Source: a virus
IMG/VR virus record: IMGVR_UViG_3300046170_000173
DNA: 64,000 bases
Strand: one strand, 5' to 3'
Shown here: positions 635 to 45,254 of the stretch, in pieces
How positions within the stretch are numbered: the first letter of the stretch is position 1
Layout: each line of letters opens with the position of its first letter
Made by a program: the position numbers and the translations under genes
Notes under the pieces: generated by a model
What the model was told of the DNA's origin: nothing
Database searches by the model: none
What the model saw: only the letters and a program-made list of their open reading frames with translations

Positions 635-3106
635 ATGAGTAAATTTTATACATCCGTGTTGCGAATGGGCAACAACATACTGTATCGCGGTTACGACAAC
701 GGTCGTCAAATTAAACTGCGCGTACCCTTCAAACCCAAACTCTATGTTACCGGAAACTCTCCGTCAGACTGGAGAACCCTAGACGGCACTTCCGTGATGG
801 AAATGCAGTTTGACTCGATGAAGGAGGCTACGGAATTCACCAAACAGTATCGAGATGTCTCCAACTTCAAGGTCTACGGTATGACCAACTACGCGATGCA
901 GTTCATCGCGGAGACCTTCCCTAACGACATCAAGTTCGATCGCGAACAGGTTCGGGTACTTAACATCGATATTGAGGTCGCGTCCGACCAAGGGTTCCCA
1001 TCACCAGACATTGCGGAACATCCGATAATTTCTATCTCAATACGCAACAACGATGGTATGTATTGGGTCTGGGGGCTCAACGACTACACGCCCACGCGCG
1101 AGGATGTTCTGTTTATCAAGTGCGACAACGAGGATGATCTACTGCGTAAGTTTGTAGACCACTGGGTCACCTACTCACCCGATATCATCACCGGATGGAA
1201 CACACGATTCTTCGATATCCCCTACATCGTCAACCGATGTTACCGAATGTATGGTGACGACACGTTAGTAAAACGTCTCTCACCTTGGGGTGCGGTGCGT
1301 GAACGTGTACAGAAGATCAATGGGCGTGACAATCAAGAATATATCATTGAGGGTGTCGAACATCTCGACTATCTTGAGGTCTTCAAGAAATTCACCCTGA
1401 ACACTTTGGGACAACAAGAGTCATATCGACTTGACCATATCGCCCACGTCGTCCTAGACGAACGCAAACTCTCATATGAGGAACACGGAAACCTACACAC
1501 TCTCTATCGTGAGGACTACCAGAAGTTTATTGACTACAACGTCAAAGACGTGGAGTTGGTACACAAACTCGATGAGAAACTCGACCTTATTTCTCTGGTT
1601 CTGACTATGGCGTATCGCGGTGGTGTGAACTACGGAGACACCTTGGGTACCACGAACATTTGGGACTCGATCATCTATCGACTTCTGAATAAGAACAAGA
1701 TCGCAATCCCACCCAAGACCGAAAAACCGAAGACTCCATATCCAGGCGGTTATGTTAAAGAACCACAGGTAGGATCGCATGAATGGGTCACCTCGTTCGA
1801 CTTGAACTCTCTATACCCGAACATCATTGTTCAGTATAACATGTCTCCAGAGACCGTTATGGACGGTCTGGTGGACGTATCGGTAGAGTCTTTCCTTGAT
1901 GGTCAACAGATACAAGGTGAAGGATATTCCCTCGCGCCCACGGGTGTGCGATTCTCTCACGAACGCAAAGGTGTGATCCCGCAGATCATTGAACAGTACT
2001 ATGCAGAACGTCGGATCATCAAGGATCAGATGCTCAAGTTGGATCAAGAGTATCAGAACAATCCGTCCAAGTCTCTTCAGTACAAGATCACATCACTAAA
2101 CAACCAACAGATGGCGATCAAGATCCTAATGAACTCACTCTATGGTGCGTTGGGTAACAAGTGGTTCCGTTACTTTGATCAACGGGTCGCCGAGTCTATC
2201 ACGATGGCAGGTCAGTTGGCAATCAAATGGGCAGAGAGGGCCGTTAATAATGAAATGCAAAAAATACTTGAAACAGAAGAAGACTATGTGGTGGCAATTG
2301 ATACGGACTCTGTTTATATTAGGATGGGGTGCCTTGTTGACAAGTTTGCTCCTAAAAATCCAGTAAAGTTTTTAGACAATATTTGCCGAGAACACTTTGA
2401 AAAAACACTTGATGAGTCATACGCAAAGATGGCAGAGATCACAGGTGCATATGTCAACCGCATGGAGATGGGTCGTGAGGTTATCGCAGATCGTGGGATT
2501 TGGATGGCGAAGAAACGATACATCCTAAACGTCCACAACAATGAAGGTGTCCAGTACACAGAACCTAAACTCAAGATGATGGGTATCGAAGCGATCAAAT
2601 CTTCCACTCCGCAGGTCGTCCGTGATAAGTTCAAGGAGATCTTCCGCGTCATTGTGGAGGGTACTGAGACTGACACTCAAGGATATATTCGAGACTTCCG
2701 GTCCCACTTCAAGACTCTGCCTCCCGAAGATGTGTCTTTCCCTCGTGGTGTTTCCAACCTTGATAAGTGGATCGACCGTGAACATGTTTTTAAGAAATCA
2801 TGCCCGATTCACGTGCGTGGCGCGTTGACCTATAACAACGCGATCAAACAGAACGATCTCACCACACGTTATGAAAACGTGACGACCGGAACCAAGATCA
2901 AGTTCTGTTACCTCAAACTGCCTAACCGATTGGGACAGAACGTCGTATCGTTCCCTCTCAATCTACCCCCTGAACTCGGTCTACACAAGTTCGTAGACTA
3001 TGACATGATGTTCGACAAGACCTTCCTTGACCCACTGGAACCGATCCTTGATGCGGTCGGGTGGAAGGCAGAACCAGCCGCAACCCTTGAGGACTTTTTT
3101 GGATGA
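635..3106 (+). CDS. gp43: family B DNA polymerase (T4 gp43)
   Basis: Exo DIE motif, [27 protein letters not shown]. Confidence 0.98.
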
Positions 3107-3471
3107 TTACTGATTTCTGTGTAATATGTGGTACGAAGGATGATCTTCACGTCCACCATATTGTTTGTAAAAAAAGTGTACTGAAACCTGTATCTGGCGA
3201 TTATGATGACCCTACAAATCTGATAACTCTTTGTGTCGAACATCATGGGTGGATACATGGTTTGAAACCTAATAGATTCAATAACCACCATAATCTAACA
3301 AGAAATGGTGTAGAGAGAGCAAAAAAGGAAGGAAAATATAAAGGACGCGCACCAACTGCGAGAAAGTTGGGTAACCGCATTCAAGAACTGCATCTCGGAG
3401 GAATGAAACCCTCTGCAATTGCAAAGGAACTCAATATCGGAGTTGCGTCGGTTTATCGATATAGAACCTAA
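3103..3471 (+). CDS. HNH endonuclease with C-terminal resolvase-type HTH
   Basis: CxxC...HVHH...NLITLCxxHH; then [14 protein letters not shown] and [15 protein letters not shown]. Confidence 0.8.
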
Positions 3472-3564: not shown

Positions 3565-3732
3565 ATGACTTACGAAGAAAAGATTGCAATGTACGATGAG
3601 AAGCTGAAGTACGAAGTGTGCCCGATGCGCATTCGTCAACTTGAGGGTCGAAAGTACACTTTGATGTTCGAAGAAGTTGAACGCCGCCTCAACGAGTTTG
3701 TTGGTCCTAAGATGGAGATCCCACTGCAATGA
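3565..3732 (+). CDS. hypothetical early protein, 55 aa
   Basis: MTYEEKIAMYDEKLK... directly after promoter and purine-rich SD; stop overlaps next ATG. Confidence 0.75.
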   Translation: MTYEEKIAMYDEKLKYEVCPMRIRQLEGRKYTLMFEEVERRLNEFVGPKMEIPLQ

Positions 3733-4307
3733 ATGTAACAAAGTCACAGATAGAACAATATGGTAAAGTGTTTAAGGATAGGTCGAATTCTTTCGATGAT
3801 TGTGGAGACTTAGACCTCTTCATTCATCGTCATTTAAGAAACAACTCCTACTTCAGAGAATATATCACTTCCATTGTGGGAGAAATGTCCTTGACTGTCG
3901 GTCGTCATGTAGATGGTCAAATGGGTGTTGATTTGTCATTATTTAACCATGATACCGGAGAGCGCGTTCTCGATATTGATCTTGAACGATGGAATGCATG
4001 GGGCACTGAGTGGCCAACTAACTATCGTTGGATACACGTCTTGGGTAGAAAGACAAAGTATGTTGAGTCCAATGTCCCTTTTTTATTCTGTCCCATGAGT
4101 CAAAATCGGGATCGTTTTTTAGTTGTTGATACCAAAGTGATCAAAAAGTATCCAGTTAAGAACAAGTATTTTGTCGGTAAAGGTCATAGTGATAATGTTC
4201 GAGAAGTACCAATGACTCAGGGATACATCTTTGGGTCGTATACTCTGAGAGAAAAGTCGCTTTTTAAGACTTGGACAGAGACAGTAAATCTCTTCTCTAT
4301 AATGTGA
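3729..4307 (+). CDS. hypothetical protein, possible PD-(D/E)XK-like nuclease
   Basis: GVDL...DIDLER...WP..IH...RK pattern; 192-aa ORF. Confidence 0.45.
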   Translation: MNVTKSQIEQYGKVFKDRSNSFDDCGDLDLFIHRHLRNNSYFREYITSIVGEMSLTVGRHVDGQMGVDLSLFNHDTGERVLDIDLERWNAWGTEWPTNYRWIHVLGRKTKYVESNVPFLFCPMSQNRDRFLVVDTKVIKKYPVKNKYFVGKGHSDNVREVPMTQGYIFGSYTLREKSLFKTWTETVNLFSIM

Positions 4308-4395: not shown

Positions 4396-4581
4396 ATGGG
4401 ATACAGAATTTTGAACATTTCAGATGAAACCCGCGAGAAGTATCAAGAGCGTGTGGGTCTGGAAGGTCCGTTTTTCTATGACGGTGATAGAGTCTTATAT
4501 TATGATGCACGTGAAGGTGCCTATCTCGATCCCACTACCGACATGTACTTAACCTATGATGAATATCAGGAGTTTGTGTAA
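4396..4581 (+). CDS. small conserved phage protein
   Basis: GLEGPF...VLYYDxxEGxYxDPxTDxY; SD GAGG. Confidence 0.8.
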   Translation: MGYRILNISDETREKYQERVGLEGPFFYDGDRVLYYDAREGAYLDPTTDMYLTYDEYQEFV

Positions 4582-5102
4582 TGAGTAATTCAATTATTGT
4601 TGTTATCGCCACTCAGTTTCGTGAGAACTACGGTGCCCACGATTGGGACGGTGAGGGTTACTGCCCTCAACACTGGAAGTCTAAGGGTGGCGACACCTAC
4701 TTCATTAACGCGTCGGCGGATGATATCGCCAACACTCAGTGGTGGGTCGACGTTGAGCGTTCTATCGAGCACTCATCTGCATACTCTGAGGAGTACATCA
4801 TCTCTGAGTCGGTCGTCGATCTTATCGACTTCCGTGAGGAAGACCACATCGAGTTCTGGGAGTCCGCGATCTACGCGTCGGTAGACTTCGGTCAGTTGTA
4901 CTGCGAGAAGAAGGCACTCAACTTCGAGAACGAGGTTGTCGGTGTCCGTCGATGGGAACAGGACTCTATGGGTAAGGACGCATGTTCTCTCACGGACCTT
5001 GATGAACCTGTGCGCGAGGAATGGCGCGTCAAGAAAGAGATGGGTATGTATGGTGTCGAAGAACAGTTCGATGAAATAGAGTCTTTACTGGGAGCCGCAT
5101 AA
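4581..5102 (+). CDS. conserved T4-like phage hypothetical protein
   Basis: TQFRENYGAHDWDGEGxCPQHWKxKGG; coupled by TAATG. Confidence 0.8.
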   Translation: MSNSIIVVIATQFRENYGAHDWDGEGYCPQHWKSKGGDTYFINASADDIANTQWWVDVERSIEHSSAYSEEYIISESVVDLIDFREEDHIEFWESAIYASVDFGQLYCEKKALNFENEVVGVRRWEQDSMGKDACSLTDLDEPVREEWRVKKEMGMYGVEEQFDEIESLLGAA

Positions 5103-5107: not shown

Positions 5108-5136
5108 TTGACACCAGAGGCTATATACTGTATACT
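5108..5136 (+). promoter_or_regulatory. sigma70-type promoter of the MTase-cmoA pair
   Basis: TTGACA-17-TATACT with TG extension. Confidence 0.75.
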
Positions 5137-5160: not shown

Positions 5161-6309
5161 ATGAATTACTCCCCATACACATTACAGGATGTCTATGACG
5201 CGGCATCCCAGAAAAAGTTCAACGTCATCTCCACCTTCGCCGGTGGGGGTGGTTCGTCTACAGGTTATCGCCTTGCGGGAGGAGACATCCTCGCTATCAA
5301 TGAGTTTGTTGAAGAGGCACGAAACACCTATCAGGATAACTACCCAACAACACCCATTGTACCGGACGATATTAAAGAGTTAACCGGACAAACCTTCCTT
5401 GATCTTACAGGTCTCAAAAAAGGTGAACTGGATATCTTAGATGGATCACCGCCCTGTTCCGCATTCTCTGTTGCGGGTAAACTGTCACATTCATCTGACG
5501 GTAAACACTCAGATGGTTGGGGCCAGACCAAGACCTATTCGGACGGCAAGGTTGTCGAGAATATCGAAGATCTGTTCTTTGAGTTCTTGCGTGTCGCGAA
5601 CGACATTCAACCCAAGGTTATCGTTGCAGAGAATGTGAAAGGTCTCACTGTCGGTGAGGCGAAAGAGTATTACAATCGTATCCTGAATGAGTTTGAGAAC
5701 ATCGGGTACGAGGTCGTATCTGAAGTTATGGATTCACGCTACTACGGAGTATCGCAAACACGTACACGTGTGATCTTTATTGCAGTACGCAACGACGTTG
5801 CGGAAGAGGTGGGTCTTAATTTTTTGACAATGAACCACTTATTTCCTGCCCCATCGCGTGAGGTCATCCCGTTAAAGAACGCTCTAGTTAATCTGGAGTA
5901 CGATGAAGATGAGGTAAAGGAACTAACAGAAAAGTTTGAAAGAACCGCATACTGGAAACAAACGGGATCTCAGATGCCCACATATCCAGACAAAGTACTG
6001 ACGGGTATGGACTATCATCCGAAGGGTCATCACTTCAATTTAAAACGTGTATCACTTGAGGTGCCTGCACCAACACTAACCGCGATGGGTAATGGTAACT
6101 CGACTGCGGGTGCATTCCATTGGGCAGAACCAAGGAAGTTGACACTCGGCGAATTAAAGCGTATAATGTCTCTACCAGATGATTTTAAACTTACGGGTAA
6201 GTGGAACCAGAAGGCAGAACGCATCGGACGCATGGTGCCTCCGTTGATGATGAAGTCGGTGGCAGAATCCGTATATGAGAACGTGTTGAAGGTATACAAT
6301 GAAAGATAG
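5161..6309 (+). CDS. C5-cytosine DNA methyltransferase homologue (predicted carboxymethyltransferase)
   Basis: Motifs I FAGGGG, IV GSPPC, VI ENV, VIII QTRTR; motif X reads GRMVPP instead of GNxV. Confidence 0.95.
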   Translation: MNYSPYTLQDVYDAASQKKFNVISTFAGGGGSSTGYRLAGGDILAINEFVEEARNTYQDNYPTTPIVPDDIKELTGQTFLDLTGLKKGELDILDGSPPCSAFSVAGKLSHSSDGKHSDGWGQTKTYSDGKVVENIEDLFFEFLRVANDIQPKVIVAENVKGLTVGEAKEYYNRILNEFENIGYEVVSEVMDSRYYGVSQTRTRVIFIAVRNDVAEEVGLNFLTMNHLFPAPSREVIPLKNALVNLEYDEDEVKELTEKFERTAYWKQTGSQMPTYPDKVLTGMDYHPKGHHFNLKRVSLEVPAPTLTAMGNGNSTAGAFHWAEPRKLTLGELKRIMSLPDDFKLTGKWNQKAERIGRMVPPLMMKSVAESVYENVLKVYNER

Positions 6310-7021
6310 AGAGAGTTATAACAAACCAGACTTTAGTTTTGCCCACCGTGAGGAAGGATTCGATAATCACATCGAAAACTCGATTCGTGGTTACAGTAAT
6401 CTACATCATGATGTCATAAAGTTATCCGAATACTTCGTCGAGGATCTAACCGACGTTGTCGACATCGGTTGTTCGACGGGTAAGACTATCTACGAAATGA
6501 TGAAACAGAACAATCGATTCGCACCTCTAGCACATTACTCTGGTATTGAGTACGCATCCGGATTTGTTGATGATATGAATGCTCGTCACAAGCAGATTGA
6601 TAATGAGGGTCTGGGTGATGTAGACTTTCATAACATGGACGTGCGTAACGCATCATTTGCAAACTGTTCTCTTATCACTTCTCTGTTCACTTTACAGTTC
6701 ATGCCCCCTCATTCACGACGTGACTTGATGAAGAAAATATATCACGGTCTGAACACAGGTGGCGCTTTCATATTTGCAGAGAAGACTATGGCGAGAGATG
6801 CTCGTCTTCAGGAAATCATGACGTTTCAATTCTATGACCATAAGTCTAAGAACTTTGAGGCGGAAGACTTGTTATCAAAAGAACGGGAACTCCGCTCAAT
6901 GATGAAATGTTGTACTTGGAGGGAATTGCACTCACTTTGCATGACCGCAGGGTTTGACTCTACGAAGATCCAACCATTCTGGCAGAACCATCTATTTGTC
7001 GGTGCAATCGCCATCAAATAA
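6299..7021 (+). CDS. cmoA: CmoA-like carboxy-SAM synthase / class I SAM enzyme
   Basis: FDNHIENSIRGY, DIGCSTG, SLFTLQF, IYHGLNTGGAFIFAEK, FWQ match the CmoA layout. Confidence 0.85.
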   Translation: MKDRESYNKPDFSFAHREEGFDNHIENSIRGYSNLHHDVIKLSEYFVEDLTDVVDIGCSTGKTIYEMMKQNNRFAPLAHYSGIEYASGFVDDMNARHKQIDNEGLGDVDFHNMDVRNASFANCSLITSLFTLQFMPPHSRRDLMKKIYHGLNTGGAFIFAEKTMARDARLQEIMTFQFYDHKSKNFEAEDLLSKERELRSMMKCCTWRELHSLCMTAGFDSTKIQPFWQNHLFVGAIAIK

Positions 7022-7022: not shown

Positions 7023-7100
7023 TGTGACTAATTACCAAAAATAAGTCACGATTAGCTGTTGACAATTCCGTCAGATTTAGTATAATGGTTACATAAATTG
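7023..7100 (+). promoter_or_regulatory. repeated early promoter cassette, copy 3
   Basis: TGTGACT...AGTCAC, TTGACA(7059)-16-TATAAT(7081), GGTTACATAAA. Confidence 0.88.
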
Positions 7101-7119
7101 ATGAGAGAGAGAAATTGAT

Positions 7120-8091
7120 ATGACCATTCCAAACATCCGATTAGTAGAAAGTCAGTATTGCGCTCCAGAATATGATGGTTGTGAAATCATCGCTGCCGGT
7201 TGGGTCTCTATTGATGATATCCACCGTGGTCCTAACTGGGCTCGTGCCGGTGATTATGACGAAGAGAAAGTTAACGAATTCCGAGAGATGATTGAGACTG
7301 GGTACTACATGCCCTATGCTCATGAAGCCCCTGTCACTGAGTACGTCAATGGAAAGTTTGTCCTTTCTATGGGGAACCATCGGCATCAAGGTCACCTTCG
7401 AGCCAACCAAGAAGAGATGTTTGTTTGCGTCGTGAACTGGAGAGACGAAGAGTCTAAACAGGTTGCAATGTCATGTGAGAACGGTAACATTTCTCCTCGT
7501 TACACTAAGAACTACCGAACTGTTGCTGACATTGTTCAGAGTGCTTCTAAGATCTTGAACATTCGAATGGTTAACGGTACGATCTCTAAGATCAACGAAG
7601 AATCGATTGACGATGTCCTCAAGACGTTGAAAGTCACTCAGAAGGAAGGTCTCGTTGAGGTACACTCATCTCTGATGGCAGATCATCACGTGCGACAAGG
7701 CGTTAAGAAGTATTCTCAAGATTGCATTGAAGATTATGTATCTAGTAACTCAGATCTCTTCGGAGACTCTCTAGTGGTTCCTCAATTGTTCCGTGACAAG
7801 GCCAGTAAGGCAGGTTATCGTGCGTTAGTTAACATGTCTCTGTCGTGTCTCGATTTGATAGAGTCTGGTCAAGACCTTCCAGAGGTCTTGAGGGTCGCCG
7901 GAGCTTTCACTAATGTTACTGAGAAGAATCTTACTTCTGCCCGTGCCGCTGCGCGTGAAGATCTAGTTCGTCAACATCGAGTTCTTCAACGATTAGGTAC
8001 TTTCTTGACTTCTGAACAGTTTGTAGTTCCTGAACTCCACGAAGTTCCTCAGTTACATGGTGTTGAGCTTGACGATACTGTTGTTGCATAA
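7120..8091 (+). CDS. ParB/Srx-like N-terminal domain protein
   Basis: VSIDDI...P...LSMGNHR motif. Confidence 0.6.
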   Translation: MTIPNIRLVESQYCAPEYDGCEIIAAGWVSIDDIHRGPNWARAGDYDEEKVNEFREMIETGYYMPYAHEAPVTEYVNGKFVLSMGNHRHQGHLRANQEEMFVCVVNWRDEESKQVAMSCENGNISPRYTKNYRTVADIVQSASKILNIRMVNGTISKINEESIDDVLKTLKVTQKEGLVEVHSSLMADHHVRQGVKKYSQDCIEDYVSSNSDLFGDSLVVPQLFRDKASKAGYRALVNMSLSCLDLIESGQDLPEVLRVAGAFTNVTEKNLTSARAAAREDLVRQHRVLQRLGTFLTSEQFVVPELHEVPQLHGVELDDTVVA

Positions 8092-8164
8092 TGTGAATAT
8101 TTACACTTGACTTTTTCTCAAATAGAGTTATAATGAAAGTGTAAATTGAGTTGAGGGATTGAAT

Positions 8165-8698
8165 ATGATGACAAAACGAGATCGAACATTCTATACTGTA
8201 TTTTGTGCCATGCGAGGCCTCTACGAAGATTGGAAAGACGATAGTCAGATGATATGTCGTCGAACCATCACTCGTTTTTTCTACGAGGGAGTGGCCAACA
8301 TATCTACCGGATACGTGTCTGTCGCTGCCAAGAATGCGAAGTCAGGCGAGAGAACTCAAGATCATTTTGCTGGTCCTCAATGGATCGGCCGGTTCATTAT
8401 GGATAATGGTCATATCTACTTGGAAGATTTCATTAAGTTCAAGAAGATTGCAGAGTTTGCATCACAGACTATTACTGTAACTAAGAAAGAGAATACTATA
8501 CTTCGAGATCAGACTTCTGTTATTTCTGACATCGATGGAGTTTCGGTCTTCATCGAAACCCCCATGTTAGAGAAATATAAAGAGGCAGGTATTGTTTTAA
8601 CACATAAAGAGTTCGAGAAGCAACCCGCACATAAGTGGGGTTTTCCTCTCGAAGTTCCTAGAGAGCTTTTAGATTATGAGTCGAAGTTTTTACGTTGA
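8165..8698 (+). CDS. hypothetical protein, weak His-Me nuclease-like motif
   Basis: Own TTGACT/TATAAT promoter and SD; TQDH..PQ and VTKKEN. Confidence 0.55.
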   Translation: MMTKRDRTFYTVFCAMRGLYEDWKDDSQMICRRTITRFFYEGVANISTGYVSVAAKNAKSGERTQDHFAGPQWIGRFIMDNGHIYLEDFIKFKKIAEFASQTITVTKKENTILRDQTSVISDIDGVSVFIETPMLEKYKEAGIVLTHKEFEKQPAHKWGFPLEVPRELLDYESKFLR

Positions 8699-17910: not shown

Positions 17911-17986
17911 GTCCCGTTCGTCTAGTGGTCTAGGACTCCGCCCTTTCACGGCGGCAACAGGGGTTCGAACCCCCTACGGGATACCA
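17911..17986 (+). tRNA. tRNA-Glu(TTC)
   Basis: Cloverleaf, anticodon loop CT-TTC-AC, encoded CCA. Confidence 0.97.
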
Positions 17987-18007
17987 CTCACACAGTTGGA
18001 ATTTATT

Positions 18008-19249
18008 ATGAAAAAACGCGACTACACACTTGAACAAGTATGGCAATTACAGGGAACTGTGCAAATTGACCACACCCTCGCAAAGATGGGTGCAACCAAA
18101 CTACGTCAACTTTTTGAAGAAAATGAGTATATTAATACTTTTGGAGCATATAATGGTCAACAAGCAGTACAACACGTCAAAGCAGGACTCAAAGCGATAT
18201 ATCTTTCAGGATGGCAAGTGGCTGCGTCGGCCAACTCTCATGGCGAAGTTTATCCGGATCAGTCGTTATATGCTGTCGATAGCGTTCCTAATGTTGTGCG
18301 TAGCATCAATAATGCATTTCGACGCCAAGACCAGATCGAATATCTGGAAAATGGAAACGGGTTTGAATTTGCCCCTATTATTGCCGATGCTGAAGCAGGA
18401 TTCGGTGGAGTTCTAAATTCTTATGAACTCGCTCGTAACCTCATTGAGGCAGGTGCTGCCGCTGTTCACTTTGAAGACCAAGTTGCTGCCGAAAAGAAGT
18501 GCGGACACCTTGGAGGAAAAGTTCTTATTCCTACTAGTCAGGCTATACGCAATCTTAACGCCGCCCGCCTTGCTAGTGACGTTGCTCGCACCGATACTGT
18601 TGTTATTGCTCGTACTGACGCAGAGTCCGCAAAACTAATCTCCAGTAACATCTCAGACATCGATAAACCATTCATCAAGAGAGTCGCGCAGGGAACTGCG
18701 GGATCCATTCAATGTCGCACACAAGAAGGTTTCTATATGCTCGAAGAGGGCAAGGGACTAGAGTTCGGTTGTGTGCGTGGTCAAGCATACGCAGAATACG
18801 CAGACCTCGTTTGGTGTGAAACATCGACACCAGACTTGAAGGATGCGAAGCGTTTCGCTGACGCGGTCAAAGGTGCAGTCCCAGACGCAATGTTGGCATA
18901 CAACTGTTCACCGTCATTCAACTGGCGCAAGTCAATCCCAGGCGATCAAGAACTAAAAGATTTTCAACGTGAGTTGGGTAAGATGGGATTCAAGTTCCAG
19001 TTTATCACACTTGCAGGATTCCACCAGACTAACTACTCTGTCTTTGATTTCGCAAACCGATACAAAGACGAAGGTATGTACGCATACTCGTTGTTACAAG
19101 AAGCAGAGTTTGCCGCAGAGTCACGTGGATACACAGGTGCGAAGCACCAGAGAGAAGTGGGTGTCGGTTACTTCGATGCCATCACCACTACATTGGGGTC
19201 TAGTTCAACTGCCGCGATGTCAGGATCAACTGAAGAGGACCAGTTCTAA
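18008..19249 (+). CDS. aceA: isocitrate lyase
   Basis: YLSGWQVA, YPDQSLY, KKCGH catalytic motif, AYNCSPSFNW, HQREVG. Confidence 0.98.
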   Translation: MKKRDYTLEQVWQLQGTVQIDHTLAKMGATKLRQLFEENEYINTFGAYNGQQAVQHVKAGLKAIYLSGWQVAASANSHGEVYPDQSLYAVDSVPNVVRSINNAFRRQDQIEYLENGNGFEFAPIIADAEAGFGGVLNSYELARNLIEAGAAAVHFEDQVAAEKKCGHLGGKVLIPTSQAIRNLNAARLASDVARTDTVVIARTDAESAKLISSNISDIDKPFIKRVAQGTAGSIQCRTQEGFYMLEEGKGLEFGCVRGQAYAEYADLVWCETSTPDLKDAKRFADAVKGAVPDAMLAYNCSPSFNWRKSIPGDQELKDFQRELGKMGFKFQFITLAGFHQTNYSVFDFANRYKDEGMYAYSLLQEAEFAAESRGYTGAKHQREVGVGYFDAITTTLGSSSTAAMSGSTEEDQF

Positions 19250-19587
19250 TGTTTAAGAGTATTGGATTTGCAATTTACGACCTTTACAGATATTTCTTTG
19301 ATTTGAAGATCAATCCGCTGAGACACATTCCTAACGAACTTGTGCAGTTTATTCTCATGTTCTACTTGTCGGTGATGTGGTCAGTAGTATTCACCTTCTG
19401 GGCTGGATACACTTGGATGTATGGAATCTATAGTGTGGGTGGTCACCTTATGGTACTTGGTGCATTCTTTATCACCGTTGCTATATTCAGCGATGCTGAG
19501 AAGAATGGTCACTTGTGGGTACAGAGGAGTAAGTTACCCGCAGTACCGAAACGCCGTATTGTTTGGGATGTGGAGAAGGAAGGATGA
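19249..19587 (+). CDS. membrane protein
   Basis: Two hydrophobic helices; NPLRHIP motif. Confidence 0.75.
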   Translation: MFKSIGFAIYDLYRYFFDLKINPLRHIPNELVQFILMFYLSVMWSVVFTFWAGYTWMYGIYSVGGHLMVLGAFFITVAIFSDAEKNGHLWVQRSKLPAVPKRRIVWDVEKEG

Positions 19588-19811
19588 TTGAGATTGCGGA
19601 GTCGCCTATTTCCAAAACAGGTAACTCAGAGTGGGATGACACTTTTAACGAGTGTTTTTATGAAAACGCAAAAACCGTGATGTGGCCACATAGTTGTATG
19701 CATGACGGTTACATATATGTCGCACGAGGAGAAGAATGTTCTTGGTGCGGTGGAAAAGAAGAAGACGAACCACAGGGTGAAAATGTTGTGGTCCCTATAT
19801 TAAAGCTGTGA
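19584..19811 (+). CDS. hypothetical protein, Cys/His-rich
   Basis: WxHxC...CSWC. Confidence 0.65.
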   Translation: MIEIAESPISKTGNSEWDDTFNECFYENAKTVMWPHSCMHDGYIYVARGEECSWCGGKEEDEPQGENVVVPILKL

Positions 19812-19818
19812 GGTAACA

Positions 19819-20031
19819 ATGCCAATTAAGTACAAAGAAGATAGTATCGTGAAAGATCGTATGACATTAAAGGTCACGACATCACGTTTCTATGTAAAGA
19901 ACCTTTCGACGGAATCGTTGTGGAATGAGTTTTTATCATGCCGCACACCTAAGTTGAAACAGAAGTTCCGCAATGAACTCGTGGCACGTAAAGTCACTCA
20001 TGAAGAGATGGTGGAACGGGCAAACGCGTGA
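19819..20031 (+). CDS. hypothetical protein
   Basis: SD GAGG; PKLKQKFRNEL. Confidence 0.7.
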   Translation: MPIKYKEDSIVKDRMTLKVTTSRFYVKNLSTESLWNEFLSCRTPKLKQKFRNELVARKVTHEEMVERANA

Positions 20032-20159
20032 GTGTAGGAATGTTGGGTATTCTTGCGGTCTTTTTGTGCCCTATGGTATTTGGTGGTATTACGATGTACT
20101 ACTGTCACAAAACTATACATAAAGAAACACTAAGACGATGGGGTAAGGATGAAGTTTAA
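20028..20159 (+). CDS. small membrane protein, 43 aa
   Basis: GTGA overlap; hydrophobic N-terminus. Confidence 0.5.
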   Translation: MSVGMLGILAVFLCPMVFGGITMYYCHKTIHKETLRRWGKDEV

Positions 20160-20526
20160 GATTGTGTACAAAAACGAGAGCGAGTCTATATTCCCTTGGA
20201 AGTCTCGTTTTCGTGGTGTTGTATTGTGGCCCTATATGATCATGCGACCTAGAAAATACGCAACTGGGGAGATCGCTCAATCAGAAATGATGACACGTCG
20301 TTCTCTCGTGAAGCTGTATCGTCATGAGTTACAACATTGTTATCAGATCAAACAGAGAGGGATATTGGGGTTCTATATACGATATGTCTTTCTTAATTTC
20401 ACTAAGGGATATCAGAACCACCCAGACGAACTAGAGGCGCGTCAGTACGAGAATGAAAGACTGACCCCGTTAGAAGAAAAGTGGCTCCATGAAGGGGTCG
20501 TGAATTTAAACGATTTGGACACTTGA
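20149..20526 (+). CDS. HExxH zincin-like protein
   Basis: RHELQHCYQ...HPDELEA. Confidence 0.7.
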   Translation: MKFKIVYKNESESIFPWKSRFRGVVLWPYMIMRPRKYATGEIAQSEMMTRRSLVKLYRHELQHCYQIKQRGILGFYIRYVFLNFTKGYQNHPDELEARQYENERLTPLEEKWLHEGVVNLNDLDT

Positions 20527-20564
20527 CAGGTCTCTTAGTTTTTGATACAATATACACATAATTT

Positions 20565-20640
20565 TGGCGAGTAGCTCAGTTGGTAGAGCCGATGACTGTT
20601 AATCATCTGGTCGCAGGTTCGAGCCCTGCCTCGCCAGCCA
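20565..20640 (+). tRNA. tRNA-Asn(GTT)
   Basis: Cloverleaf, CT-GTT-AA, CCA. Confidence 0.97.
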
Positions 20641-20644
20641 TTTT

Positions 20645-20729
20645 GCGAGAGTGGTGGAATTGGTAGACACGCTGGTTTTAGGTACCAGTGCCGCAAGGCG
20701 TGAGAGTTCGAGTCTCTCCTTTCGCACCA
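20645..20729 (+). tRNA. tRNA-Leu(TAG)
   Basis: Long variable arm, TT-TAG-GT, CCA. Confidence 0.96.
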
Positions 20730-20754
20730 TTTATTATGATCCAGTGAGAGTAGT

Positions 20755-21109
20755 ATGACTATGAAGGCAGGAAAGATTTGGGGACAGACAGAACTCATTC
20801 ATGCGAATGGCGTTCTAGAATTTCATCGTATCGAATACAAGAAAGGTTTCAAGTGCTCCGAACATCTCCACGAATATAAGTGGAACGGGTTCTTCGTAGA
20901 GTCCGGTGAGATGATCGTGCGCGTATGGCAAGATGACCAAGACGGTCTTGTTGATGAGACCATACTACGTGCGGGTGAGTTTCACCCAAGTCAGGCCAGG
21001 TAAGATTCACCAGTTCGAAGGTGTAAAAGACGGTGTTGCATTTGAGTTGTATTGGGCAGAGTTCAATCACAACGATATCGTTCGACGCACCATTGGGAGC
21101 AAATCTTAA
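20755..21109 (+). CDS. cupin-fold protein (one extra T at ~20980)
   Basis: KIWG, SEHLHEYK, and after correction PGKIHQF...AFELY. Confidence 0.8.
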
Positions 21110-21411
21110 TGCCTCCTAAACAAGGACGTGGAGACCCAATGGTACGTGCAGACGGTCGCACTAAACCCGATCGCGCATGGTACCCCGACAACTTCGATTG
21201 GTATCTAAAGTGGGTTGCCTCTATTTTAATTCTAGTTTCAATGGCCATGCGTTCTGCCGGACCAGATTATCGCATGTATGACTTGACAATCGGGTTCGTA
21301 GGCATTATACTATGGACTTGGGTATCAGTTATTTGGAAGGATCGCGCACTGATTATGCTAAATGCGGTTTCCTTGTTTATGTTAGGCACAACTATATTGA
21401 GAGAATGGTAA
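21109..21411 (+). CDS. three-helix membrane protein
   Basis: WYLKWVAS...WKDRALIMLN. Confidence 0.75.
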   Translation: MPPKQGRGDPMVRADGRTKPDRAWYPDNFDWYLKWVASILILVSMAMRSAGPDYRMYDLTIGFVGIILWTWVSVIWKDRALIMLNAVSLFMLGTTILREW

Positions 21412-21412
21412 T

Positions 21413-21799
21413 ATGGCTAAGAAGGTATATGCACACACTCCACCCTACTTCAATGAGACGGTAGAATTTGAAAGATACTCGGAAGGTGTGACAATGCGAG
21501 AGGCTGCTGATATTAGTACAGTAGACTATAAGTTTAGTGAAGGTAAGTTGATTGAAGAATTCAAGAATTATGTAGATTCTACATATGGCCAACACTACGC
21601 GAAGCAGAAGTTTCAGGCGACTGAGTTCATCGTAGACGGTGGACACGGTACAGGGTTTTGTATTGGAAACGTGTTGAAGTATGCACAACGGTATGGTAAG
21701 AAAGGAACCGATGCAGACGCACGTAAAGACCTAATGAAAGTTCTCCACTACGCATTGATTCAGTTACACGTACATGACCAATCTACTACTAACCAATAA
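21413..21799 (+). CDS. DUF3310-like protein
   Basis: HY...GFCIGNVLKYAQRYGKK...DLMK. Confidence 0.8.
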   Translation: MAKKVYAHTPPYFNETVEFERYSEGVTMREAADISTVDYKFSEGKLIEEFKNYVDSTYGQHYAKQKFQATEFIVDGGHGTGFCIGNVLKYAQRYGKKGTDADARKDLMKVLHYALIQLHVHDQSTTNQ

Positions 21800-22409
21800 G
21801 ATTTACTATGTCGGTCTGGGCGACCGACTTGACGTAATGGGTGTCGCAAAACATCTCAGCGAACAGGGTCGTGTAAAGATCCTACAACCGCGTGGATGGT
21901 TTCGACAACTAGACGAACTCGTAGACCTGTTCGATTTGAACTGCGTCTACTACCACGGGAAGCCGGTGGATCATGAGGAATATCATCTCCATGATCCAGA
22001 TGGTGATCACTCGTTTTACGACAACCGCGACTTTATTCGATTGAGCGTCGATCTCGATCTGGAGTTGCCAGAGAAATTCGTGACTGTCCAATTCGATGGG
22101 ACACACGGTCATAATAGAATCCGCAACCCGAATAAAATTTTATCGGAGTGGCGAGAAAGGGGGTATGAAATTATCCACGTTGGAGGAAAAGCGAACGATG
22201 ACAGGTTCGCACCGAAGGCGGGTAATCTCAAAAACATTGCGTATGCCATGTCCAAGTCTCACGGACATATCGGTGTCGATTCGGGAATGATGCACCTCGC
22301 AAAGTTCTCAATGGACGCAGATAAAATTTGTGTATATACAGTCATGGAACGAAAAACCAGTTTTGTGCATACCTTAGAACGAAAGGGGGCACAAGTCCTA
22401 ACATATTAG
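21774..22409 (+). CDS. GT9-like glycosyltransferase
   Basis: GLGD and IGVDSGMMHLA. Confidence 0.7.
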   Translation: MTNLLLTNKIYYVGLGDRLDVMGVAKHLSEQGRVKILQPRGWFRQLDELVDLFDLNCVYYHGKPVDHEEYHLHDPDGDHSFYDNRDFIRLSVDLDLELPEKFVTVQFDGTHGHNRIRNPNKILSEWRERGYEIIHVGGKANDDRFAPKAGNLKNIAYAMSKSHGHIGVDSGMMHLAKFSMDADKICVYTVMERKTSFVHTLERKGAQVLTY

Positions 22410-22485
22410 GAGCGGTAGTTCAGTTGGTTAGAATACCGGCCTGTCACGCCGGGGGTCGCGGGTTCGAGTCCCGTCCGCTCCGCCA
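22409..22485 (+). tRNA. tRNA-Asp(GTC)
   Basis: Cloverleaf, CT-GTC-AC, CCA; close to proteobacterial tRNA-Asp. Confidence 0.97.
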
Positions 22486-22502
22486 ACTTTCGAGAGGAAT
22501 TT

Positions 22503-22724
22503 ATGAGATTTCTTGTTGTTATAGTATTGACATTTGTAGTAGGATGTAGTATAATTGTTGCCAATGAAGATGAAAGAATATGTCTTGATTGGAAGTCTAG
22601 GGTAATAGTTCAAGAAAGATGTATTCCCTATTATGGCACAATAATGTGTGCTGATGAAGAGAAAGTTCAAACGTGGTGTGTCCTCTATGAGGAACTTGAA
22701 CCGATGAGGAAAGACGATGCGTAA
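22503..22724 (+). CDS. small putative lipoprotein
   Basis: Signal peptide ending VVGC; Cys-rich. Confidence 0.6.
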   Translation: MRFLVVIVLTFVVGCSIIVANEDERICLDWKSRVIVQERCIPYYGTIMCADEEKVQTWCVLYEELEPMRKDDA

Positions 22725-22956
22725 AAGCATAACCCCATACCTACTAAAATTAGATGACCGACTTTGGGATGAGATTGAAGACAATCGAATGGCACTCAAG
22801 GCATTGTTCCCTTCAGGTGTATCAAAAAAAGAGTTTATCCAGAATGCGATAATCGCATATAACCAGTCGTTTGTTGAGTCTGGGGTTAAGGAAAAGTTAA
22901 GACAAATCCGGCAAGTGGAGATTGAAGATCCACTGTCGCCATACTACGGAGAGTAA
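22717..22956 (+). CDS. hypothetical protein
   Basis: ORF with SD. Confidence 0.65.
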   Translation: MRKSITPYLLKLDDRLWDEIEDNRMALKALFPSGVSKKEFIQNAIIAYNQSFVESGVKEKLRQIRQVEIEDPLSPYYGE

Positions 22957-22957
22957 A

Positions 22958-23158
22958 ATGGCAAGAGGAAAGTTAGAAACCAAGCGCCGTCGTGAAGGTG
23001 CTTTAGAGCGTCTCCGTGCGTCAAAGTTCTTTGAGAAGAACGATCGCACAGAGACAAAATGGCAGGCACGTAAGGACAAGGAGATCGCGATTCTTGAGAT
23101 CTCCCTTGGTCTGAAACAGGCAGCCAAAGTGAAGAGAGAGGAAATCTCTCTCGATTGA
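22958..23158 (+). CDS. small basic protein
   Basis: SD GGAG; RREGALERL. Confidence 0.7.
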   Translation: MARGKLETKRRREGALERLRASKFFEKNDRTETKWQARKDKEIAILEISLGLKQAAKVKREEISLD

Positions 23159-23170
23159 TAGGGGAATGGT

Positions 23171-23323
23171 ATGGAAATCCTAGCAGTTGTAGCAGTAGTT
23201 GTAGTAGTATATTTTATCGTGCGTAGTCGCGGCGGTAAAGGTGGTTCAGGCGGTTCAGGAGGATCCGGAGGTGGCGGTGGTTCAACGCGACCTGACGATG
23301 GTAACAGCGTCAACCGGAAGTGA
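23171..23323 (+). CDS. single-pass Gly-rich microprotein, 50 aa
   Basis: MEILAVVAVVVVVYFIVRSRGGKGGSGGSGGSGGGGGS. Confidence 0.7.
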   Translation: MEILAVVAVVVVVYFIVRSRGGKGGSGGSGGSGGGGGSTRPDDGNSVNRK

Positions 23324-23328
23324 GCTTT

Positions 23329-23397
23329 GGTCCTGAGATGACTTTAAACTCACTCTGGTCGTTACGCCCGTCACCTGAGTATGTGGAAAACTGCTCA
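23329..23397 (+). ncRNA. candidate structured RNA: two tandem small H-type pseudoknots
   Basis: GGTC-C-TGAG-AT-GACT-TTAAA-CTCA and TCAC-C-TGAGTA-T-GTGG-AAAAC-TGCTCA. Confidence 0.5.
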
Positions 23398-23429
23398 ACA
23401 CACAAACACACACACAAAAGGAGACAATT

Positions 23430-23642
23430 ATGTCTAATCCAAACCCATACGAACTTCGGTTCCAAATCTTTAACGAAGCAAGAAATGTCCTAACAGATGA
23501 GTACTGGGCTAAAGTAAATCGCCGAGAAGTTTTGATTGAAACTGGTGGCGTCGATACCGTCCCAGAATTTCCGACATACCCTACTATGCAAGATATCATG
23601 GAAAGGGTAAAAGTCATCAACGAGTTTGTTTCAAACAGTTAA
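23430..23642 (+). CDS. conserved small T4-like phage protein
   Basis: NPYELRFQIF...YPT...INEFVS; CA-rich leader and AAGGAG. Confidence 0.8.
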   Translation: MSNPNPYELRFQIFNEARNVLTDEYWAKVNRREVLIETGGVDTVPEFPTYPTMQDIMERVKVINEFVSNS

Positions 23643-23719
23643 CGGAGATTGGCGCAGTCTGGTAGCGCATTCGCTTTGGGAGCGAAGGGTCGTAGGTTCG
23701 AGTCCTACATCTCCGACCA
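23643..23719 (+). tRNA. tRNA-Pro(TGG)
   Basis: Cloverleaf, TT-TGG-GA, CCA. Confidence 0.96.
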
Positions 23720-23732
23720 ATAAGGAAATGTT

Positions 23733-23894
23733 ATGATACACGAATGGAAAATTTTCTATAAAGGTATTCAGGTGGGTCTCACCTATTCATTGACAGAGTA
23801 CGGTGCGAGAGAACGTTGGTACAATGCACACTCTATGAGTTCAAGTAAGTATTGCGGTCTTTCATTTGATGATGTCTTTGCAAAGCGGGCATGA
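23733..23894 (+). CDS. hypothetical protein, 53 aa
   Basis: SD TAAGGA; MIHEWKIFYKG. Confidence 0.65.
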   Translation: MIHEWKIFYKGIQVGLTYSLTEYGARERWYNAHSMSSSKYCGLSFDDVFAKRA

Positions 23895-23895
23895 C

Positions 23896-24054
23896 ATGTC
23901 TTTGGAAGATTTACATAAATGGGAATTTTATGGGGGTCGTTTCGGCGATTACCAAACACGGTGCCTGCGAAAAGTATTGCGCAGTCTTCGGAATTCCCAC
24001 AGACATGACTCGCACAGGATATGTCCATGTCGTAGCAGAGAGGTTCAAATATGA
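23896..24054 (+). CDS. hypothetical protein
   Basis: Fills gap, ATGA overlap with next gene. Confidence 0.45.
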   Translation: MSLEDLHKWEFYGGRFGDYQTRCLRKVLRSLRNSHRHDSHRICPCRSREVQI

Positions 24055-24302
24055 ACTTTAAATTACCAAGTCCCAATGACATGGGCAATGTGGTCCGTCA
24101 CTCTCTCCATCAATATTTGGAGTGGCACATATGTGAACACTATGGTGTTCACCGTATAGGTGATCTCACAGTAACAGAGATTACCGAAGTCATGGCCGAA
24201 TACTTTAACCAAAAATCTGAAAGACTCGATTCGATGGTTGCGCAGGCACTTAGGATCGCGATAGGAAACTGGGAGGCCAGTAACGGAAAAGGAATCCTAT
24301 GA
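24051..24302 (+). CDS. hypothetical protein
   Basis: SD GAGG. Confidence 0.65.
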   Translation: MNFKLPSPNDMGNVVRHSLHQYLEWHICEHYGVHRIGDLTVTEITEVMAEYFNQKSERLDSMVAQALRIAIGNWEASNGKGIL

Positions 24303-24667
24303 AAAGTTTAACCTTATCTATTTTAATTTTGTTTATTATATCTTTCCAACCACTTCAGGTCAGTGCACAGAAATATTATGGAAAGGATGATTTCAGATTT
24401 TTAAAAAAGGAATATGAAAACCTTACGCCAGGCGTTGAATTTGTTTTGATAAAGAACAAACAAGAATATGACAGGGTAAGAAAGGAACATCTTGGAGTTC
24501 AGTGGGACACTATTAGTGCCTTTGCGTATTGGAACCCTAAGAAAGGTACTTGTAAGATATATATTAAAGATCCGTCATGGAAGTACGAACCTGAGTTGAT
24601 CGGACACGAAGTCGCTCACTGTATCTGGGGTCGTTTTCATAACGGAAGAAAAGGAATGAAACCATAA
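24299..24667 (+). CDS. secreted HExxH protein
   Basis: Signal peptide; GHEVAHCIWG. Confidence 0.7.
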   Translation: MKSLTLSILILFIISFQPLQVSAQKYYGKDDFRFLKKEYENLTPGVEFVLIKNKQEYDRVRKEHLGVQWDTISAFAYWNPKKGTCKIYIKDPSWKYEPELIGHEVAHCIWGRFHNGRKGMKP

Positions 24668-24699
24668 TGAATTCCTTCTTTGGTTTGTTTGAAAAACTA

Positions 24700-24796
24700 A
24701 TAGGGTCTGATTCCCCTATCCAAATAACTGAATCAGTGGTGCCCAGAAGAGCAGAGAGTCTCGTTCCTCTCTCAAATCAACGAACGAGTGGTACCG
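24700..24796 (+). ncRNA. candidate structured RNA: two tandem covarying H-type pseudoknots
   Basis: 6-bp S1 / 1-nt loop / 7-bp S2 in both copies with different stem sequences. Confidence 0.7.
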
Positions 24797-24813
24797 GAGG
24801 CTGGAAAGAATTG

Positions 24814-24890
24814 GCGGGTGTAGCTCAGATGGATAGAGTGTCGGTCTACGAAACCGAAGGTCATAGGTTCGAATCCTATCACCCGCGCCA
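24814..24890 (+). tRNA. tRNA-Arg(ACG)
   Basis: Cloverleaf, CT-ACG-AA, CCA. Confidence 0.96.
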
Positions 24891-24895
24891 GAAAT

Positions 24896-24970
24896 TGGGG
24901 TGTCGCCAAGTGGTAAGGCAACGGGTTTTGATCCCGTCATTCGTAGGTTCGAATCCTTCCACCCCAGCCA
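24896..24970 (+). tRNA. tRNA-Gln(TTG)
   Basis: Cloverleaf, TT-TTG-AT, CCA. Confidence 0.96.
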
Positions 24971-24986
24971 TATGATGAGGAATAGT

Positions 24987-25223
24987 ATGAGTTTTATTAA
25001 AGAGTTAGAAAGACTGCAACAGAACATCAAAGAGTTGAATCAGACATTCGAAGCTCTGACGGAAAGTGTTGAGCGATACCAAAACACTAGAACTCCACCA
25101 GAGTATCCTAACGAATTGCTTGAACACAATGTAGATCTCGAACCAAGATTATCAATTGATGAGATATCTCCACGAGAGTGGGACGCAATTTCTAAAAGGT
25201 TCTATAGAGAACGCAAGTTATAA
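24987..25223 (+). CDS. coiled-coil hypothetical protein
   Basis: SD GAGGA; heptad pattern. Confidence 0.7.
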   Translation: MSFIKELERLQQNIKELNQTFEALTESVERYQNTRTPPEYPNELLEHNVDLEPRLSIDEISPREWDAISKRFYRERKL

Positions 25224-25228
25224 GATTA

Positions 25229-25316
25229 GGTGGGCTGGCTGAGCGGTCGAAAGCGGCGGTCTTGAAAACCGTTGAACCGAGAGGTTCCGTAGGTTCGAAT
25301 CCTACGCCCACCGCCA
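25229..25316 (+). tRNA. tRNA-Ser(TGA)
   Basis: Long variable arm, CT-TGA-AA, CCA. Confidence 0.96.
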
Positions 25317-25402
25317 CTTATTTTCAAAAAGTGTAATATTAACACTTGACACATGCCTATCATTATAGTATACTTGTTTCTGAAATGTGAGAGAGGTTTC
25401 AA

Positions 25403-25975
25403 GTGATCAAGATTTTTTATGTCCACGGTTGGGGTTCTGAGTTTGATCCGACTAGTGACAAGGTTCGTGCGCTGTCTGAGTTAGGTGAAGTTCACGGTGT
25501 TACTGTGACATGGGCAGACGGACATCAACGTGTATTCGATCAACTTACTGAAGAGATTAGTGCGTATCAACCCGACTTACTCGTTGGTACTTCTATGGGT
25601 GGTTACGGTGTCAGTCATCTAGGTACCGAACTCGGCATTCCCTTTGTAGCAATCAACCCCGCAATACGACCCCACGAGACACTTATGAGTCGTGTCGGTA
25701 CTGGTACTGATTACTATGGTCGCGAGTATGAATTGACTTGGCAGACTGTGAGTGCATTCCCTGAGTTTGCTGTCGGTGGTTACGGACTTGTTCTTGTTGC
25801 GATGGATGATGATGTTATTAACGCGCAAGAAACTATAAATAGATACGCAGAACATTACGACTGTCGTGTCTATGAGACTGGTGGACACCGATTCACTAAC
25901 TTACCTGAAGCGATAGTTGAAATTCGAACTTTCTATAACATTGCCGAAGAGGTTTACGGACTTGCTGACATTTAA
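25403..25975 (+). CDS. YqiA/YcfP-like alpha/beta hydrolase (esterase)
   Basis: YVHGWGS, GTSMGG, INPA, DDVI, GGHRF. Confidence 0.88.
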   Translation: MIKIFYVHGWGSEFDPTSDKVRALSELGEVHGVTVTWADGHQRVFDQLTEEISAYQPDLLVGTSMGGYGVSHLGTELGIPFVAINPAIRPHETLMSRVGTGTDYYGREYELTWQTVSAFPEFAVGGYGLVLVAMDDDVINAQETINRYAEHYDCRVYETGGHRFTNLPEAIVEIRTFYNIAEEVYGLADI

Positions 25976-26567: not shown

Positions 26568-26654
26568 TTTCAAAAAAAAACTTGACAAACGCCATCTGAT
26601 TATTATATAATTCTGTTCTAACTTGAAAAAGAGTATTTGAGAGGCTCTTATATT

Positions 26655-28070: not shown

Positions 28071-28081
28071 GAAGGAGAATT

Positions 28082-28291: not shown

Positions 28292-28299
28292 GGAGTATA

Positions 28300-28375
28300 G
28301 GGGCTATAGCTCAGTTGGGAGAGCGCTTGATTTGCATTCAAGAGGTCGTGGGTTCGACTCCCTCTAGCTCCACCA
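28300..28375 (+). tRNA. tRNA-Ala(TGC)
   Basis: GGGGCTA acceptor with G3-U70, TT-TGC-AT, CCA. Confidence 0.96.
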
Positions 28376-45222: not shown

Positions 45223-45254
45223 TATAATTTAACAATAACATTAATAGGACTTAT

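Follow-up and report, generated by a model that had tools for sequence, protein, structure and literature searches.

Which mark does a phage place on its DNA when a gene of the cytosine C5-methyltransferase (C5-MTase) family overlaps a gene for a homologue of CmoA, the synthase of carboxy-S-adenosylmethionine (Cx-SAM)? This question is raised by two genes, cmoX and cmoA, in a viral sequence of 64,000 nucleotides (IMG/VR record IMGVR_UViG_3300046170_000173), the whole of which is called the window here. The evidence makes it highly likely that this CmoX-CmoA cassette writes 5-carboxymethylcytosine (5cxmC) at GC dinucleotides, and that the modification protects the DNA from type II restriction; the mark probably stays bare. 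Homology, sequence motifs and a footprint in the restriction sites of the window are observed directly; for chemistry, GC target and end product, the reading relies on the experiments with Synechococcus phage S-B43 and on that footprint.

The chemistry has a close precedent. Yang et al. (Nat Commun, December 2025; PMC12783734; PDB 8YF3) described the CmoX-CmoA-CmoY system of S-B43, in which CmoA makes Cx-SAM from S-adenosylmethionine (SAM) and prephenate. Wild-type CmoX of this phage (SpCmoX) accepts only Cx-SAM, not SAM, and writes 5cxmC at GC, and DNA modified in this way resists HhaI (PMC12783734). In the crystal structure (PDB 8YF3), SpCmoX Arg350 contacts the Cx-SAM carboxylate and takes the place of HhaI Asn304 (PMC12783734). 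CmoY, an asparagine synthetase-like ligase, adds glycine to 5cxmC, and native S-B43 DNA holds the glycine amide only, with no 5cxmC (PMC12783734). A census in the same paper, which drew on IMG/VR, lists 5,615 CmoX candidates in phage data, with 4,257 CmoA, 2,251 ligase and 1,660 ParBc genes on their contigs; it also reports ligase families besides CmoY and several ligase clusters with unknown amine specificity (PMC12783734).

The initial annotation of this DNA, made from the letters alone, had mentioned a similar pairing reported in a cyanophage, which agrees with the S-B43 report (PMC12783734). Because that report exists, the system in the window is not novel, and one IMG/VR copy is 100% identical to the window CmoX. 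The window is a further example of the published system. Specific to it are the ligase-less arrangement, a conserved internal promoter-like site, and the footprint of GC specificity and anti-restriction.

Coordinates and family matches agree with the earlier description of a complete C5-MTase gene that overlaps a CmoA-like gene by 11 nucleotides: the cmoA ATG lies at 6299, and the cmoX stop codon TAG at 6307-6309 (Table 1). The cmoX product matches PF00145 over its full length (E=1.3e-53, Pfam) and TIGR00675 dcm (E=7e-43, NCBIfam), and a search of solved structures returns SpCmoX, PDB 8YF3, at E=4e-153 over residues 5-377. By tblastn, the window CmoX is 64% identical to SpCmoX over its full length, and the window CmoA is 54% identical to SpCmoA. 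The C5-MTase motifs of CmoX are FAGGGG at residues 26-31, SPPC at 96-99, ENV at 157-159 and QTRTR at 199-203. Translation of the S-B43 record places SPPC at 95-98 and the motif X Arg at 350, and the nucleophile role predicted for window Cys99 is taken from SpCmoX Cys98 (PMC12783734). Arg357 of the window CmoX aligns with SpCmoX Arg350 in 'VGRMVPP' and with the Asn of 'IGNAVP' in HaeIII, so it does occupy the motif X Asn position, as had been proposed. A phmmer match to M.MpeI (4DKJ) has E=1e-9 and leaves motif X outside the aligned region.

For the product of the second gene, the top NCBIfam match is TIGR00740 CmoA (E=4.3e-31, positions 10-231 of 239), and further matches are phrog_4752 (E=1e-56) and E. 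coli CmoA, 4GEK (E=1.5e-23). The cofactor-binding residues of E. coli CmoA are established, and its Arg199 forms a salt bridge with the carboxymethyl carboxylate (PMC3663124). Window residues Y32, D55, G57, S59, E84 and F134 match E. coli Y39, D62, G64, S66, D89 and F137. Window Arg199, probably the equivalent of E. coli Arg199, is invariant in all 43 distinct phage CmoA sequences of the family alignment, SpCmoA included, with the alignment register around it ambiguous by three residues. A pairwise HMMER alignment had pointed to Arg196 in its stead; this candidate was rejected because Arg196 is variable in the family alignment and Arg199 invariant. The initial annotation had proposed that the phage makes Cx-SAM and writes 5-carboxymethyl-C as an anti-restriction mark, and the chemistry demonstrated for these 64%- and 54%-identical homologues supports that proposal.

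Relatives in metagenomes show how firmly the two genes are coupled. IMG/VR holds at least 256 CmoX relatives, and the counts reported here come from the best 80, which are 74-100% identical. GSPPCSAFS is invariant in all 80, GRMVPP is kept in 79 of the 79 that reach the C-terminus, and cmoA directly follows cmoX in 72 of the 77 relatives whose contigs reach far enough. Five loci of a single lineage (within L057-L062) have CmoX directly after the polymerase and no cmoA downstream. CmoX in this lineage is 78% identical with GRMVPP intact, and such phages may depend on the CmoA of the host or may infect different hosts. The identical CmoX copy comes from a 2.6-kb IMG/VR fragment (L006), and many other copies are 90-96% identical.

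Evidence for target and function comes from the restriction sites of the window. Each of the 32 CCNGG sites has a G on the 5' side or a C on the 3' side, a GC flank expected by chance at a fraction of 0.26-0.27 of CCNGG sites (binomial p about 1e-19). Markov models of order 1-3 predict 92-124 CCNGG sites, 66-87 of them unflanked. Synonymous-codon shuffles predict 93±7 in total, with 64±7 unflanked (minimum 49) and 29.5±4.6 flanked. Since 0 unflanked and 32 flanked sites are observed, the unflanked class has been eliminated and the flanked class stands at expectation. With a G as its neighbour, the outer C of CCNGG becomes part of a GC dinucleotide, which is the SpCmoX target.

Other depleted C-initial palindromes behave in the same way. 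Survivors are GC-flanked at CCATGG (1/1), CTTAAG (2/2), CTGCAG (3/3) and CCGCGG (4/4), the last being only mildly depleted (4 against 9.1 expected), which brings the total over the five depleted C-initial palindromes to 42 of 42. ACCGGT and GACGTC, which such a flank cannot cover, are absent where 12 and 18 would be expected, and the non-avoided sites CATG, CCGG, CTAG and CGCG show no flank bias. Over the whole window, the observed/expected ratio is 0.72 for the GC dinucleotide against 1.08 for CG, and the 2,259 GC sites make up to 16% of cytosines modifiable. The footprint is indirect support for a protective modification of cytosines in GC context in the window phage, and the CmoX target there is very probably GC.

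Other genomes provide controls. In S-B43, all eight CCGG sites (120 expected in total) and all six CACGTG sites are flanked, and CCNGG is at chance. Two whole genomes in which CmoX is the only C5-MTase (G002 and G003) have 59 of 60 and 143 of 144 CCNGG sites flanked. Across 72 CmoA-positive loci, which are related so that their counts are not independent, 307 CCNGG sites are flanked and 17 unflanked, and all 17 fall in three loci. The CmoA-less lineage has 8 flanked and 30 unflanked sites.

A further comparison involves a different chemistry. Burke et al. (PNAS 2021; PMC8256090) reported phage GpC-specific C5-methyltransferases paired with TET/JBP dioxygenases, and GpC or GpC[C/T] specificity was shown experimentally for these enzymes (PMC8256090). 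Methylophilales phage Melnitz, an example of this class, carries a GpC-type methyltransferase (MTase) that is 41% identical to the window CmoX, lies likewise directly after the DNA polymerase gene, and accompanies the same GC-flank footprint: 74 of 74 CCNGG and 17 of 17 CCGG sites are flanked. Its motif X reads ARIGLMVAP, with Leu and not Arg, and its partner is a Tet/JBP oxygenase rather than CmoA, so the chemistry there is methylation followed by oxidation and not carboxymethylation. In Melnitz-3 (L124:4010-6194), the C5-MTase gene overlaps that of the Tet/JBP-type oxygenase, with a RimK-like ATP-grasp gene placed immediately ahead of the polymerase gene.

Venkman, an unrelated siphovirus of the same host as Melnitz, has no CCNGG (32-42 expected), CCGG, CTGCAG or GATC at all. 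Its annotation contains no cmoX-type gene and only a 194-aa 'DNA methyltransferase'. The contrast between the two phages implies that the pressure is host restriction and that GC modification rescues flanked sites. A purge of unflanked CCNGG by a phage nuclease directed against host DNA was also considered; it is disfavoured by the complete purge in Venkman, which points to host restriction.

Together, these lines of evidence suggest a mechanism. The cassette would be transcribed from host-type early promoters, and CmoA would convert SAM and prephenate into carboxy-SAM. CmoX would flip out the cytosine of GC, Cys99 would attack its C6, and the carboxymethyl group of Cx-SAM, whose carboxylate Arg357 is predicted to hold, would be transferred to C5. 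GC sites would then carry 5-carboxymethylcytosine on both strands, which amounts to up to about 16% of cytosines. This mark would stay bare 5cxmC, unlike the glycine amide of S-B43. It would block host type II restriction enzymes where a GC overlaps the recognition site, and sites that cannot be covered in this way would be purged from the genome.

Several observations weigh against this explanation. The TIGR00740 score of the window CmoA, 108 bits, falls below the equivalog cut-off of 193, and the target-recognition part of CmoX has diverged from SpCmoX, with a six-residue insertion. What the footprint shows is the importance of a G on the 5' side of the outer C, and this is compatible with GC and equally with GC[C/T], the specificity reported for related phage MTases (PMC8256090). 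Three CmoA-positive relatives, as well as S-B43 at CCNGG, are without the footprint; its absence from some CmoA-positive phages implies that it depends on the host's restriction enzymes. Phage C48C1, the closest sequenced relative, keeps most of the footprint without a C5-MTase, so part of it may be inherited. The search for a ligase, finally, covered the 64 kb of the window, whereas the genome measures roughly 150 kb or more, and a ligase or other tailoring enzyme may lie elsewhere.

The nature of the end product depends on the last of these points. A tblastn search of the 64-kb window with SpCmoY gives nothing below E=0.8, and Pfam scans of nearly all window open reading frames (ORFs) of at least about 160 aa detect no asparagine-synthase (PF00733-type), ATP-grasp or AMP-ligase domain. 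Because no CmoY or amide ligase is found in the window, bare 5cxmC is probably the end product here. In all three of the complete or near-complete genomes examined (S-B43, G002 and G003), a ligase is encoded no more than 3 kb away from cmoX, and the two loci nearest by polymerase (94%; L007 and L008) are also without CmoY. The wider proposal is that this phage and roughly half of its clade, the part without CmoY, package DNA with bare, negatively charged 5cxmC as their final and main anti-restriction mark, and that this mark shapes the remaining CCNGG, CCATGG, CTTAAG, CTGCAG and CCGCGG sites; the chances for and against it are about even. Until now, bare 5cxmC was observed only in recombinant systems or as an intermediate.

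The best-surviving alternative makes 5cxmC only an intermediate here too, which a ligase or tailoring enzyme, outside the window or unrecognisable by sequence, would turn into an amide or a hypermodified base. It has the native DNA of S-B43 on its side, where the glycine amide and not 5cxmC is found (PMC12783734), and also the CmoY homologue within 10 kb of cmoX in 38 of the 72 CmoA-positive relatives, among them L010-L012 with a 96%-identical CmoX. The several ligase clusters of unknown amine specificity (PMC12783734) and the ORFs without assigned function in the cassette island (3729-4307, 4581-5102 and 8159-8698) leave room for such an enzyme. This alternative is nevertheless unlikely: the window lacks SpCmoY-like sequence and, in the ORFs scanned, all three ligase-type domains; the ligase sits no more than 3 kb from cmoX in each of the three complete or near-complete genomes; L007 and L008 share its absence; and only 2,251 of the 5,615 CmoX contigs carry a ligase (PMC12783734).

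A second alternative grants the footprint and detaches it from the cassette, which would no longer matter: the footprint would be inherited, or would come from another GC-specific modification encoded elsewhere in the genome, of which the window is only a part. C48C1 provides its best argument. No C5-MTase is found anywhere in its whole genome, and still 69 of its 88 CCNGG sites are flanked and 19 unflanked, with other sites at chance, so that the footprint outlives the gene; the pattern is consistent with a fading relic after recent loss of the cassette. In the window, by contrast, both genes are intact with all catalytic motifs present, and the complete lack of unflanked CCNGG sites, of which C48C1 has 19, is a sign of selection still at work. 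The 100%-identical copy and the many copies at 90-96% in metagenomes, together with four whole genomes in which a CmoX-family gene is the sole C5-MTase, likewise tell against the idea, which is very improbable.

The last alternative starts from the tRNA genes of the window, a cluster of nine at 17911-28375 that comprises Glu-UUC, Asn-GUU, Leu-UAG, Asp-GUC, Pro-UGG, Arg-ACG, Gln-UUG, Ser-UGA and Ala-UGC. In Gram-negative bacteria, the anticodons that carry uridine-5-oxyacetic acid (cmo5U) include Leu-UAG, Pro-UGG, Ser-UGA and Ala-UGC. The phage CmoA might on this basis mainly feed host CmoB for cmo5U34 in host and phage tRNAs, with the MTase homologue an ordinary 5-methylcytosine methylase, and four of the nine window tRNAs as well as the label 'tRNA methyltransferase' given to the CmoA homologue in public records fit this idea; it is very improbable, in view of the overlap of cmoA with cmoX, their adjacency in 72 relatives, the exclusive use of Cx-SAM by SpCmoX (PMC12783734) together with the motif X Arg kept in the window CmoX, and the lack of CmoB among the scanned window ORFs. 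That lack agrees with the initial annotation, which had noted no CmoB-like partner in the window: Pfam scans of nearly all window ORFs of at least 190 aa, a few ORFs that overlap longer ones being left unscanned, detect no CmoB-like protein. Phage Cx-SAM could also feed host CmoB as a side benefit of the DNA-modifying cassette.

Comparison with known systems places the CmoX-CmoA cassette more precisely. With S-B43 it shares both enzymes, SPPC, the motif X Arg, the CmoA Arg, the GC target predicted here, flank rescue at avoided restriction sites, and a T4-like, Kyanoviridae-type phage as carrier. It differs in gene order, which is cmoX-cmoA with the 11-nucleotide overlap in the window and cmoA-cmoY-cmoX in S-B43. 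CmoY, present in S-B43, is missing from the window, for which 5cxmC rather than 5-glycyl-cxmC is therefore predicted as the end product. Unlike in S-B43, the cassette occupies the slot between polymerase and primase, and the avoided host sites are CCNGG and others in the window compared with CCGG in S-B43.

The engineered enzyme M.MpeI N374K follows the same principle, as a basic residue in place of the motif X Asn enables the use of Cx-SAM and the formation of 5cxmC (PMC12783734). It has an engineered Lys and a CG target, whereas the window enzyme has a natural Arg and a predicted GC target, and the two belong to different MTase lineages. The initial annotation also named the E. coli Dcm variant N436K as an engineered enzyme of this kind. 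The bacterial CmoA-CmoB pathway for tRNA cmo5U34 (4GEK/4IWN) shares the Cx-SAM synthase fold and the cofactor-binding residues. In that pathway the acceptor is 5-hydroxyuridine (ho5U) of tRNA rather than a DNA cytosine, the window is without CmoB, and the window CmoA scores below the equivalog cut-off.

Transcription of the cassette appears less simple than the initial annotation had it. The pair was described as lying under one promoter, and a promoter-like site is indeed present upstream of cmoX, but a conserved second site lies inside cmoX, 132 nucleotides upstream of the cmoA ATG (Table 1). Of 79 relatives, 47 keep this internal site at 12/12, and within a subset of 14 relatives, synonymous changes in the site are confined to the spacer. 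cmoA probably has its own promoter besides read-through and translational coupling. Similar near-consensus promoter-like sites stand ahead of neighbouring early genes at 3510, 4339, 7059, 8107 and 8695. The promoter-bearing intergenic stretch 7023-7124, after cmoA, has two matches of 81-86% identity in a 10.7-kb viral fragment (G001:C1:8085-8656), which suggests a repeated early-promoter or intergenic element common to phages.

The genomic position of the cassette also fits a wider pattern. Between the window phage and phage C48C1 (Kyanoviridae, 156 kb; OQ984149.1), the polymerases share 86% identity, and the source phage is T4-like, of Kyanoviridae type and marine. The cassette is located between the DNA polymerase and primase genes. 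In C48C1, the same slot holds a Dam-type (DPPY) methylase (L004:14501-15385), and in Melnitz it holds the 41%-identical MTase followed by the Tet/JBP oxygenase; several DNA-modification modules, the cassette among them, can thus replace one another here. The cassette is also a mosaic internally, with CmoX at 96% and CmoA at 72% identity in some relatives and CmoX at 90% and CmoA at 95% in others. At the end of the polymerase gene, and overlapping it, lies a gene for a 122-aa HNH endonuclease with a C-terminal resolvase-type helix-turn-helix (3103-3471), which is absent there in C48C1 and is probably a homing endonuclease.

Table 1. Genes, residues and promoter-like sites of the cmoX-cmoA region, with positions counted from the first nucleotide of the window
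Feature	Position	Strand	Description	Family or structure match
Promoter-like site upstream of cmoX	5108..5136	+	sigma-70-type, TTGACA-17-TATACT; 11/12 consensus matches; putative function	
cmoX	5161..6309	+	DNA cytosine C5-carboxymethyltransferase homologue, 382 aa	PF00145; PDB 8YF3
SPPC motif, Ser96-Cys99 of CmoX	5446..5457	+	predicted nucleophile Cys99, the counterpart of Cys98 in SpCmoX	
Internal promoter-like site, 3' end of cmoX (codons 327-336)	6139..6167	+	TTGACA-N17-TATAAT; 12/12 consensus; putative function	
Codon CGC, Arg357 in CmoX motif X (ERIGRMVPP)	6229..6231	+	predicted Cx-SAM carboxylate ligand	
cmoA	6299..7021	+	carboxy-SAM synthase homologue, 240 aa	TIGR00740; 4GEK; SpCmoA
Codon CGC, Arg199 of CmoA in LRxM[LM]K (window: LRSMMK)	6893..6895	+	probable equivalent of E. 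coli CmoA Arg199	
ParB/KorB-like protein	7120..8091	+	323 aa; own promoter-like site 7059-7086; membership of the system doubtful	
179-aa ORF	8159..8698	+	conserved partner of the ParB-like gene; own promoter-like site	

Two further genes follow the cassette. The ParB-like protein matches phrog_1033 (E=9e-5), and its AlphaFold2 model, with a predicted local distance difference test score (pLDDT) of 87.5, finds KorB, ParB and Noc in Foldseek at E values down to 6e-6. An exhaustive HMMER search gives 39 representatives. G85 of the protein is invariant and H87-R88 near-invariant. The 179-aa ORF behind it has no Pfam or PHROG match, but two contigs unrelated to the window (L132 and L133) have a homologue of 50-55% identity directly behind their ParB-like gene. 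One of these contigs is a fragment of 1.8 kb and the other, L133, belongs to a phage and has a Mom-like gene; both carry the two-gene module without a visible cmoX, and in one contig with a ParB-like homologue no cmoX is seen within 6 kb. Among the CmoX relatives, the ParB-like gene stands beside cmoX only in the 100%-identical fragment L006. A role of the ParB-like gene as a partner of CmoX, raised by the ParBc co-occurrence (PMC12783734), is doubtful, as the module occurs elsewhere without a visible cmoX and is absent from all relatives except L006. The 179-aa ORF is probably outside the CmoX system.

Other parts of the window show features of their own. Carbamoyltransferase homology is split between ORF 54612-55436, with the N-terminal domain, and ORF 55369-56130, with the end of the N-terminal and the C-terminal domain, which suggests a frameshift, a sequencing error or a programmed shift. 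The ribonucleotide reductase region (43231-46233) encodes a large subunit of 663 aa with a C-terminal glutaredoxin domain. Small-subunit homology ends there at 190 aa (45255-45827) and is followed by an overlapping 179-aa ORF (45694-46233), and the small-subunit gene is possibly split or interrupted. Auxiliary genes unusual for a T4-like phage, at 17996-19249 and 26637-28070, encode an isocitrate lyase homologue (PF00463, E=1e-91) and a di-haem cytochrome c peroxidase/MauG-like protein.

In marine T4-like phages, the cassette is both common and mobile. Restriction sites that survive only under a GC overlap offer a readout, from sequence alone, of both the target motif and the protective efficacy of the modification. 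This readout addresses a question left open in the S-B43 study, namely the specificities of other CmoX homologues (PMC12783734). If the reading proposed here is true, the flank-rescue footprint could reveal computationally the modification specificity of a phage together with the restriction repertoire of its unknown host.

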